Assembly: GCF_003334255.1 (NCBI RefSeq) | Contig: NZ_QOWU01000098.1 | Reading direction: 5' to 3' (one strand) | DNA length: 7,050 nt | Source: Escherichia coli | Lineage (GTDB): Bacteria; Pseudomonadota; Gammaproteobacteria; Enterobacterales; Enterobacteriaceae | In this document: positions 4,476 to 6,467 of the stretch, piece by piece | Numbering within the stretch: the first letter of the stretch is position 1 | Layout of the letters: the number at the start of each line of letters is the position of its first letter | The notes under the pieces: model-generated | Told to the model about the DNA's origin: nothing | Database searches by the model: none | What the model saw: only the letters and a program-made list of their open reading frames with translations | Translations under genes and position numbers: made by a program

Positions 4476-4804
4476 TTAATACCCCGCCGTTAAATCATCC
4501 ACCAAGCGCGAGTCGGATGCGCCGTACAACTCACCATCCGACCCAACCATAATGCTTTGCGTGCTGCCCATCGCCTCATTCAGCGCCACTTTCTGACCTT
4601 TTGCTTCCAGCAGCTTGAGCGTATCCGGACTAAACCCTTTTCAACACGCAGCTCGTCCGGCAACCACTGATGGTGGAAACGAGGCGCATTGGTCGCTTCG
4701 GCAACATTCATTCCACAATTGATGCTGTTCACCACCATTTGCGGCACGGTAGTGATGATCCAGCTACCGGTAACAAAGTGAGTACATAAAGGCCATACTG
4801 TCAC
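4476..4804 (-). pseudogene. ggt: 3' remnant of gamma-glutamyltranspeptidase (ggt): truncated at the IS boundary, with a -1 frameshift and a 12-bp in-frame deletion
   Basis: Minus-strand translation gives ...THFVTGSWIITTVPQMVVNSINCGMNVAEATNAPRFHHQWLPDELRVEK, then, after shifting frame at the T4 run 4638..4641, GFSPDTLKLLEAKGQKVALNEAMGSTQSIMVGSDGELYGASDSRLVDDLTAGY*. This matches the E. coli Ggt C-terminus as I recall it (VTGSPGGSRIITTVLQMVVNSIDYGLNVAEATNAPRFHHQWLPDELRVEKGFSPDTLKLLEAKGQKV...DDLTAGY). PGGSR is replaced by W (about 4758..4768). Homology stops near 4800, 14 bp from the IS inverted repeat; no ggt 5' portion is found beyond the other IS end. Confidence 0.8.
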
Positions 4805-4813
4805 GAACAGTGC

Positions 4814-4840
4814 AAAAGTGGCTCTTCCGCAACCTGGGTG
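4814..4840. repeat. Left terminal inverted repeat of the ISL3-family element (as drawn on the plus strand)
   Basis: AAAAGTGGCTCTTCCGCAACCTGGGTG, matching the reverse complement of 6521..6547 with one mismatch (C/T at position 9). Confidence 0.7.
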
Positions 4841-4847
4841 AAGATTT

Positions 4848-6467
4848 TCATGCCAGTGGACTCATTACCCTCCGCCTAAGTAGTTCAAGTCCGGCTCGAC
4901 CATACATCTGGCGTATCAGCACCTTCAGGCGATTTACATGACCTTCGACAACACCAGTACTCCAGCGACTGCTGATTGCCTCACATATAGCCGCAGCATC
5001 AGCTTCCATCCCCGCAGCTACGCACCGAAGTTCTGCTGAGCCGCTTTCGTGGACCCGAGTGAACCAGCTGCTTAGCTGTGATTTATTTTAGGTTTTCAGA
5101 ATACGGTAGAACTCGAGTACCAGTTGCTGCGCTATTTTCAACTCCGGTTCTTTTTCACACATCAGACTAATAAATCGGAAAGCATAATTTTCTTCACCCC
5201 TGATTATTCTCCAGGGCATCAACCAGCGGCTTACCCGGGACACTGAAGGAAGTCTTGCGGCAGTAGTAACCGGTGGGATCCAGCCTTTATGCCATTTGGC
5301 AACAGCATCCCTGACGATGGTTTCACTGCCTGTAACCCCCCTGGCCACCATTTCCCGCCATATCCGGCCGGAGTTATAATTACCACATTCTCGTTGCTCT
5401 TTTAACCACTCCCTCCATGGGTCCAGAAGCCCTCGCTTTGGAGGCCTAGTTGACATTTCAGGGAATGTTCCTGAACCCACCCAGCGACTGACTGTCACTC
5501 GCGACAGGCCTGTAATACGGGATATTTCCCTGAAACTACATCCCTTGTTATGCAGGGCCATAACCTCTGTCCAACGCTGATGCCGTTTTTTGCGGATGTG
5601 CTGTTTAAGGCGTTCCAGACGACGGAGCGATGCTACAGGCACAGATATTTCTGGCTCAGGTGATTTCTTCAGTGATAACTCTCTGACAACAAGACGTATC
5701 AGAGGCATATATCTGTACATCATTCGTTCAGGCTCATCACCAATATTTTTTAGCAGGTGCCATCGATCGGCCACCTGTCTGGCCTGAGGTGCACCTTCAC
5801 GTGCTGCTGTCGCATAGACTCCACTGCGATCACGCGAGACAACCTGTATTTCCGGATATTTTCTGAACCAGGTCGCCAGCGTACGCTGATCACGGCCGGG
5901 AAGCAGGACGAGGGGACGGTGAGTATCAGGATTGACTATTAACATACCGCAGCAGTGGCCCCGATGCCACGCCCACTCATCAATACCGACATGAGGCGCG
6001 CCTGACTGTTTCGTCTCCGGGGTATTGATAAGCCTGCGAAGAAGAGTATCAGCACTGCAACGGAGACCCACTGCCGTTGCAGCCCGTTTTCCAGCCTCAC
6101 CTCCAGCTATTAATCCCAGTTGACGTTGTTAATTTTGTAACGCCTGTGAAGACTGCTGGTGTGAACTGGCGAAGGGAGCAAGCGACTCGGCAAAAATTTT
6201 ACGTGAACAAGCCGGGTTACGGCAGTACCAGTGGCGGACGGAAAATACAAGCCATAGCGTCTGCCCTGAGCAGGGTAGATGCTGTATCCGGCGCCGACGA
6301 CAACTATGAACAGAGTCGCTACGCTTAAAGCATTCAGGACATTGTGCTGTTTTGCGTTTTCCGTGGAGATGGAGGGTTATACCGTCAGAGCTAATAATTT
6401 GTCGACTGCATCGCCATCCGCAAGGTAACTGTAGAAGTGTCTTAAGAGAGTGCATTGCGTTGCCCAT
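4848..6467 (-). pseudogene. ISL3-family transposase (about 539 codons) in one continuous frame, broken by two in-frame TAA codons (6129..6131 and 5088..5090)
   Basis: ORF 6129..6467 (zinc-finger part: ...CPECFKRSD...HWYCRNPACSRKIF), ORF 5088..6071 and the untracked tail 4848..5087 are all in the same frame. Translating across the stops gives ...QALQN * QRQLGLIAGGEAGKRAATAVGLRCSADTLLRRL... (HTH-like), then ...VGIDEWAWHRGHCCGMLIVNPDTHRPLVLLPGRDQRTLATWFRKYPEIQVVSRDRSGVYATAAREGAPQARQVADRWHLLKN... (DDE region), then ...FYRILKT * NKSQLSSWFTRVHESGSAELRCVAAGMEADAAAICEAISSRWSTGVVEGHVNRLKVLIRQMYGRAGLELLRRRVMSPLA* (typical ISL3 C-terminal motif). The final stop at 4848..4850 is 8 bp inside the left IR. 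Confidence 0.8.

Follow-up and report, generated by a model that had tools for sequence, protein, structure and literature searches.

The Locus and Its Features

The window, that is, the whole stretch of 7,050 nucleotides of Escherichia coli DNA analyzed here, is matched by E. coli chromosomes at 100% identity. In the complete genome of APEC O2-211 (locus L001) it is located in an accessory island directly past cobU-cobS-cobT-ldtA-asnV, and in K-12 the same chromosomal slot holds the cryptic prophage CP4-44. The PGAP annotation lists, in order, an IS66-family transposase fragment, a frameshifted PfkB-family kinase, a glutamine amidotransferase, a DMT transporter with an internal stop, an intact phosphotriesterase-related protein, a gamma-glutamyltransferase pseudogene, an ISL3-family transposase, and island genes for zinc-ribbon proteins.

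The window begins with the transposase-proximal (left) end of ISEc45, an element of the IS110 family, at 1-75 on the minus strand. Its limits are given by PGAP and by a comparison between L009, where the site is filled, and L001, where it is empty; this comparison places the tip of the element, ...GGTCATACCAT, at position 75. The transposase, whose ATG lies at 16 (minus strand), reaches 279.9 bits with the IS110 model NF033542, which has a cut-off of 140. The 3′ relic of an IS66-family tnpC follows at 76-283 on the plus strand, recognized from the annotation and from 46% identity to the C-terminus of an IS66 transposase in tblastn. Positions 297-4774 are then taken up by a displaced block of 4.5 kb, which is collinear with the native interval between yhhY and ggt in Citrobacter and Salmonella diarizonae. 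Within it, there are a DeoR/PfkB pseudogene (392-1605) and a DMT transporter pseudogene (2434-3399), both known from the annotation, a glutamine amidotransferase-like gene (1619-2377), an intact phosphotriesterase-related gene (3402-4436) and, between the latter and the tail of ggt, a shared hairpin (4446-4468).

The block ends with a pseudogene fragment of ggt (4476-4774, minus strand), which is followed by a spacer of 24 bp, AAAGTGAGTACATAAAGGCCATAC (4775-4798, plus strand), by a dead ISEc38-like insertion sequence of the ISL3 family of 1,764 bp (4799-6562, minus strand), and by the right flank of this element (6563-6773). At 6751-7050, on the minus strand, is the 3′ portion of an island gene that encodes a protein with a zinc-ribbon domain (annotated as WP_001221623.1) and runs past the window. 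Nowhere in the window did an Rfam family reach its gathering score.

Regarding the two genes that meet at the junction, RefSeq/PGAP reports them at the same coordinates as those found here: APECO2_RS16915 is a gamma-glutamyltransferase pseudogene described as “frameshifted; incomplete; missing N-terminus”, and APECO2_RS16920 is an ISL3 family transposase flagged with “internal stop”. Neither the ends of the insertion sequence nor the 24-bp spacer is recorded in this annotation, which is also silent on where the block came from.

The ggt Fragment

The stop codon of the ggt fragment is at 4476-4478 on the minus strand, and blastn aligns 4476-4769 with K-12 ggt at 92.5% identity and with a 1-bp deletion, located near 4641, that causes a frameshift. 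These data bear out a previous sequence-only reading of the window as far as the presence of a ggt 3′ fragment on the minus strand is concerned. Beyond 4769, a 12-bp deletion between two GCTACCG repeats carries the alignment on to 4774 (GCTACCGGTAAC), and it removes the residues PGGS (482-485) of GGT. The matches found by tblastn of the window are restricted to GGT residues 477-580, and the C-terminal 54 residues of the fragment score 93.3 bits against the profile NF007187, at positions 528-581. A full ggt reading frame is absent: only residues 478-580 are present, with the frameshift and the 4-codon deletion, so that the fragment has neither the large subunit nor the processing and catalytic threonine (Thr391 in E. 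coli GGT).

Just past 4774, the window reads AAAGTGAG..., whereas ggt of K-12 and Citrobacter reads CAGCCAGGTTTT.... No further ggt-like sequence was found elsewhere in the window, or in the 12 kb flanking it to the left and to the right in the complete genome (L001), in agreement with the earlier statement that nothing resembling ggt lies to the right of the insertion sequence. The distance between the end of ggt and this element had been given as about 14 bp from the inverted repeat; it is really 39 bp from the start of the repeat as then drawn (4814), and 24 bp from the true IS end. The smaller figure probably traces back either to the open reading frame at 4580-4804 or to an ungapped protein alignment running spuriously to 4789, as the ungapped tblastn drift up to that position is a meaningless pairing of LCTHFVTGS with LVTGSPGGS.

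The ISL3-Family Element

Plasmid copies annotated as “ISL3-like element ISEc38” have about 95% nucleotide identity to window 4799-6562. To define the ends of the element, five plasmid copies were aligned with the window, along with metagenomic copies. The termini TGTCA...TGACA are common to seven independent full-length copies, and the flanks diverge immediately outside them; the consensus is TGTCACGAAC(A/G)GTGCAA(A/T)AGTGGCTCTTCC... at the left terminus and ...GGAAGAACCACTTTTCATCCGTCGTTGACA at the right one. The terminal inverted repeats of the window copy, at 4798-4840 and 6521-6563, are imperfect and about 43 nt long, with arms that are 81% complementary; inside the element limits set by the other copies, they cover about 4799-4840 and 6521-6562. 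These repeats, together with the comparison with ISEc38, confirm that an ISL3-family element adjoins the ggt fragment, although the limits formerly assigned to it, 4814 and 6547, are 15 bp short at each end when compared with the intact ISEc38 copies.

In the ISL3 family, duplications of 8 bp are typical. Direct repeats of 5 bp flank three intact ISEc38 copies, namely GTTGT (L005), GTACT (L006), and CTTGC (L098), and the chance that one such repeat is accidental is about 1/1024 per copy. Since these repeats are placed directly outside TGTCA...TGACA and each is this improbable, an ISEc38 unit with a 5-bp duplication is well supported, and the mobile unit appears to be of 1,764 bp. It was also considered whether the outermost 21 bp of either end might be a conserved target sequence instead of part of ISEc38; this was rejected, because the 5-bp duplications are found farther out, which assigns these 21 bp to the element. 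Five further plasmid copies of ISEc38 share the nhaC-ISEc38-panD context of the copy at L007. A search for the ISEc38 repeat in viral contigs gave no matches, and in published papers ISEc38 is named only in lists of elements, without a structural description.

The junction sequence of the window copy is ...AAGGCCATAC, followed by the element and then by GATGTGAAGT.... The flanks CATAC and GATGT are not repeats, and this copy has no target-site duplication. The sequence-only reading had also reported that a duplication was missing, and this part holds; the 8-mers on which it relied, AACAGTGC (4806-4813) and CATCCGTC (6548-6555), lie within the ISEc38 terminal repeats and are therefore internal to the element. 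No direct repeat is present at the corrected IS boundaries either. Despite the missing duplication, the window copy is still a member of the ISL3 family, one that was rearranged after its insertion.

The transposase frame of the window copy (4848-6467, minus strand) has no indels, two in-frame stop codons interrupt it (L113*, 6129-6131, and Q460*, 5088-5090), and 43 of its 540 codons differ from those of the intact ISEc38 transposase. Against the ISL3 model NF033550 (cut-off 180), the intact transposase scores 376.3 bits, while the largest open reading frame of the window copy reaches 158.6 bits over profile positions 101-287. The window copy thus has the termini and the 540-codon frame of the intact plasmid copies, from which it differs in its two in-frame stop codons and in the lack of a flanking duplication; with these two stops, it is dead.

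The 24-bp Spacer

The sequence-only reading had ggt truncated at the ISL3 boundary. This is not the case, because the spacer at 4775-4798 separates the end of ggt (4774) from the IS terminus (4799). The spacer is not diverged ggt either, as it does not resemble the corresponding stretch of ggt in K-12 or in Citrobacter. In blastn, its positions 4777-4798 match the tip of ISEc45 (window 51-72) in the same orientation at 20 of 22 nucleotides, and the match stops 3 nt short of the ISEc45 end. The assignment of the spacer to the IS110 family is based on these 22 nt with two mismatches, and the spacer looks like nucleotides 4-27 of an ISEc45-like tip, with ggt on its inner side and ISEc38 on its outer side.

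ISEc45 belongs to the IS110 family, whose transposase is RNA-guided, and the 22 nt matched by the spacer are conserved in its copies from E. coli, E. fergusonii, and Klebsiella plasmids. All the copies examined are in an IS66-family tnpC, and at the same site wherever both flanks are readable and unrearranged; a single site in the transposase genes of the IS66 family thus appears to be the target of ISEc45. The putative relic at the junction resembles the tip of this element in its core and has the same orientation as the copy at window 1-75, but only about 24 nt are left: the tip is missing its last 3 nt, and there is neither a transposase gene nor the usual IS66 tnpC context. Its outer flank is now ISEc38, ggt is directly on its inner side, and no IS110 transposase gene is adjacent. 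As for its age, the two differences in 22 nt compare with a divergence of about 7.5% for the ggt fragment and of about 5% for the insertion sequence, which fits the age that the other relics would imply.

The relatives of the spacer were sought in several ways. The scan of viral contigs with the spacer query AGTGAGTAYATAAAGGYCATAC gave no match, nor did the scan of metagenomes with AGTGAGTACATAAAGGYCATACV, a query designed to exclude the relic, in which no exactly matching tip was found. The spacer is absent from the flanks of the other ISEc38 copies examined. When the E. coli genomes were searched with a chimeric query in which a full ISEc45 abuts ISEc38, 0 genomes had a coverage of at least 80%, and no genome was found with intermediates such as ggt::IS66::ISEc45.

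Origin of the 4.5-kb Block

The counterparts of the block were identified by a protein-guided scan for its phosphotriesterase-related gene, in which each species was represented by one genome. The closest genes are those of Citrobacter spp., with 87% amino-acid identity, and of Salmonella enterica subsp. diarizonae, with 85%. In three Citrobacter genomes, of three species, the phosphotriesterase-related gene is followed by a full-length convergent ggt, and S. diarizonae has yhhX, yhhY, the cluster, and the 3′ part of ggt, as the fetched locus ends inside this gene. Over 297-4769, collinearity of the window extends to each of these four loci, with a nucleotide identity of about 76%, and the order DeoR/PfkB, amidotransferase-like, DMT, phosphotriesterase-related, and convergent ggt is the same in the window and in these species. 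On the left, this collinearity begins at about 297, and 13 bp separate that point from the terminal repeat (CGCTTAC, 277-283) in which the IS66 relic ends.

The complete order in Citrobacter is yhhX-yhhY-(DeoR/PfkB, amidotransferase-like, DMT, php)-ggt-yhhA-ugpQ-ugpC, and the same slot in K-12 contains yhhZ-yrhA-IS1-yrhD-yrhB. The window and the Citrobacter locus differ in other respects: ggt is full length in Citrobacter, and is followed by yhhA-ugpQ, whereas only codons 478-580 are present in the window; moreover, the block is found in the yhhY-yhhA interval in Citrobacter, and in the island beside cobU in the window. The identity of the ggt fragment is 92.5% when compared with K-12 ggt, but only 81-83% when compared with the gene of Citrobacter or Salmonella, which indicates that the block came from an Escherichia-like genome. 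None of the representative Escherichia genomes in the one-per-species scan has the php cluster beside ggt.

From this comparison, the ggt fragment is not what is left of the cell's own ggt; it forms the margin of a block of 4.5 kb that has been displaced and now lies beside cobU. We infer that the block moved, rather than that ggt was deleted in place.

Frequency of the Junction in E. coli

Of the 5,426 complete genomes of E. coli, 2,527 contain the entire junction region (window 4380-4900), with identities of 98.7-100%, and the remaining genomes have only the native ggt, which is 90-93% identical to the fragment. No pre-insertion state and no alternative class of junction was met in a spread sampling of E. 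coli genomes. The junction is neither recent nor strain-specific, and it is fixed in the 2,527 complete genomes that have it.

The first 1,425 bp of the native ggt, that is, its 5′ part, are present in 5,422 of 5,426 genomes, at a median of one place per genome, which means that there is no second ggt 5′ piece beside another copy of the insertion sequence. According to the sequence-only reading the ggt 5′ part had been removed at this site; with the native 5′ part present once in nearly all genomes, it need not ever have been deleted at the island site. The native gene being intact, the ggt function of the cell is untouched.

The right junction of the insertion sequence is equally invariant, and the 211 bp beyond the element occur only joined to this ISEc38-like copy. 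A plasmid search with this right flank (6563-6773) returned just four records, all with the same junction. Homology to paralogous island genes begins at 6774; upstream of this point the flank has no similarity to the paralogous island, nor to IS66, and its comparison with ISEc45 yielded nothing beyond an 11-mer.

How the Junction May Have Formed

The explanation put forward in the sequence-only reading was that an ISL3 element inserted in or near ggt, and that an ISL3 adjacent deletion, or recombination between two copies, then removed the ggt 5′ part. This agrees with the lack of a target-site duplication around the window copy and with the failure to find the ggt 5′ part beyond the element; in addition, several intact plasmid copies of ISEc38 are also without duplications, which indicates that rearrangements at its ends are common. 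However, an adjacent deletion mediated by a transposase starts exactly at the IS end, and here 24 bp that are neither ggt nor ISEc38 lie between 4774 and 4799; these cannot be ascribed to the insertion sequence, since they occur in no flank of its other copies. With this scrap between ggt and the element, an ISL3-mediated adjacent deletion cannot have cut ggt, and we consider the explanation as a whole quite improbable. What survives of it is that the junction did not arise by simple insertion into ggt, and that it belongs to the class of IS rearrangements. The general case of IS-mediated adjacent deletion likewise leaves an insertion sequence free of duplications next to a truncated gene, but there the IS terminus is on the breakpoint, whereas at this junction the breakpoint of ggt meets an internal point of a different element. 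That the junction is an artefact of assembly or sequencing has a negligible probability, given that it is identical in 2,527 independently assembled complete genomes and that the PGAP annotation of it is consistent.

The spacer might also be filler or unrelated DNA, whose likeness to ISEc45 is coincidental, next to an ordinary illegitimate deletion of ggt to which the ISL3 element is merely adjacent. The match is indeed of 22 nt with two mismatches, a parent element with an identical tip was not found in the viral and metagenome scans, and a full ISEc45 next to ISEc38 is in no genome searched. Nevertheless, 200 dinucleotide-preserving shuffles of the window produced 0 comparable matches, the chance expectation is about 2e-6 by our own estimate, and the match lies within the last 25 nt of a mobile element, which are conserved; furthermore, the megablast alignment of the chimeric ISEc45-tip/ISEc38 query passes through the spacer without interruption. 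Coincidence is therefore unlikely, if less so than a deletion driven by the ISL3 element.

The account that we regard as probable is instead that ggt is the edge of the displaced block, that it was cut inside an IS110-like tip, that the ISEc38-like element came separately, and that the resulting mosaic is old. The order of events, as read back from a single fixed end state, would be the following. A block of chromosomal genes once located beside ggt in an Escherichia-like genome would have moved to the IS-ridden cobU island, where it now consists mostly of pseudogenes and has the terminal repeat of an IS66-family relic as its left border. At its other edge, codon 478 of ggt would have been fused to a point some 27 nt into the tip, on the transposase side, of an ISEc45-like IS110 element; a fusion at such a point implies a cut by illegitimate deletion or joining, with the other end inside that element. 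Separately, an ISEc38-like element would have come to adjoin the remaining 24-bp scrap, and would later have lost at least one of its original flanks and died through the two stop codons. The mosaic as a whole is old, and about half of E. coli has received it by vertical descent.

Going one step further back, the scrap may descend from a whole IS110-like element, which was probably within a second copy of IS66, because ISEc45 is always in an IS66 tnpC among the copies examined. In this sense, the scrap hints at a second IS66 copy that may once have bordered the block on the right. A more speculative extension, which we hold to be doubtful but somewhat less so than a coincidental spacer, is that the block is a fossil of the ancestral Escherichia yhhY-ggt neighborhood, brought to the cobU island within a composite that had an IS66-family copy at either end, that the IS110 scrap marks the place of the lost right copy, and that the phosphotriesterase-related gene was kept intact in half of E. 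coli because it is still used.

Significance

The junction is an ordinary, ancient, and fixed IS scar, both pieces of which are already annotated as pseudogenes in RefSeq. Its biological weight is little, as the cell's ggt is intact and the scar is decaying. There are lessons of a practical kind: the ends of an insertion sequence should be set against those of its other copies before testing for a target-site duplication, and a gene fragment beside an insertion sequence may be the edge of a translocated block, and not the remains of a deletion in place. As for genome annotation, tools such as MobileElementFinder will go on reporting “ISEc38” in about half of the E. coli genomes on account of this dead copy.

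Limits of the ISEc38 element

The mobile unit of ISEc38, an insertion sequence of the ISL3 family, appears to be 1,764 bp long, as judged from the dead copy in the window (4799-6562) and from three further copies (L005, L006, and L098), and its terminal repeats are imperfect and about 43 nt in length. The target duplication appears to be 5 bp, namely GTTGT, GTACT, and CTTGC at L005, L006, and L098, respectively; a duplication of 8 bp is typical for elements of the ISL3 family.

Two copies depart from the usual arrangement of the ends. In the plasmid copy L005 (NZ_CP010124.1, about 1501-3269), the outer tips of 21-26 nt are swapped relative to the transposase gene, i.e., the usual right-end tip is found on the left end and the usual left-end tip on the right, and this copy still has a 5-bp duplication on its flanks. 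The copy L101, from a metagenome contig (QZLN01002341.1), lacks the usual outer tip at its right end (near 2704-2730), and reads ...GGAAGAACCACTTT followed immediately by unrelated sequence.

To the right of the window copy, relatives of the 211 bp at 6563-6773 were detectable nowhere except at the same junction, and the homology of the paralogous islands to the window begins only at 6774.

Apparent association with IS66 and ISEc45

All the copies examined of ISEc45, a member of the IS110 family (window 1-77; L107-L112), are located in an IS66-family tnpC gene. Wherever both flanks can be read and show no rearrangement, the site is identical, ...CGGAAA(T/G)AAAAA[CT]TTATGTTCTTCGG..., and the cobU-side island of strain APEC O2-211 shows it empty (L001 7770-7790). 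ISEc45 looks like a site-specific insertion sequence whose target is the transposase gene of another insertion sequence.

In the chromosome of E. coli SMN013SH2 (L094 2440-2680), an ISEc38-like copy is truncated, and its right end adjoins a tnpC gene of the IS66 family at the 3' end of that gene; at another locus, L004, an IS66 transposase gene lies about 600 bp from the ISEc38 copy. It seems that ISEc38, IS66, and ISEc45 are repeatedly found together.

The displaced block and the native ggt

Of the genes in the displaced block, only the phosphotriesterase-related gene (window 3402-4436) is fully intact; PGAP lists it as an ordinary CDS (WP_000656344.1). A hairpin (4446-4468) is common to this gene and the convergent tail of ggt. 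In APEC O2-211, the annotated neighbors in the block, i.e., a PfkB kinase, a glutamine amidotransferase, a DMT transporter, and ggt, are all marked as pseudogenes. In strain 2018-01-1CC (L009 10616-12175), the amidotransferase-like gene is cut off by an IS1 copy, and of the remainder of the block nothing is left, neither the ggt relic nor the ISEc38 copy; this loss of the locus is a secondary, IS1-associated deletion.

As for the native ggt, its alleles in complete E. coli genomes, searched with L002 5400-6824 as the query, are between 90% and 100% identical to that of K-12, and 1,899 genomes fall in the 90-95% class. This allelic divergence is unusually deep for a core gene.
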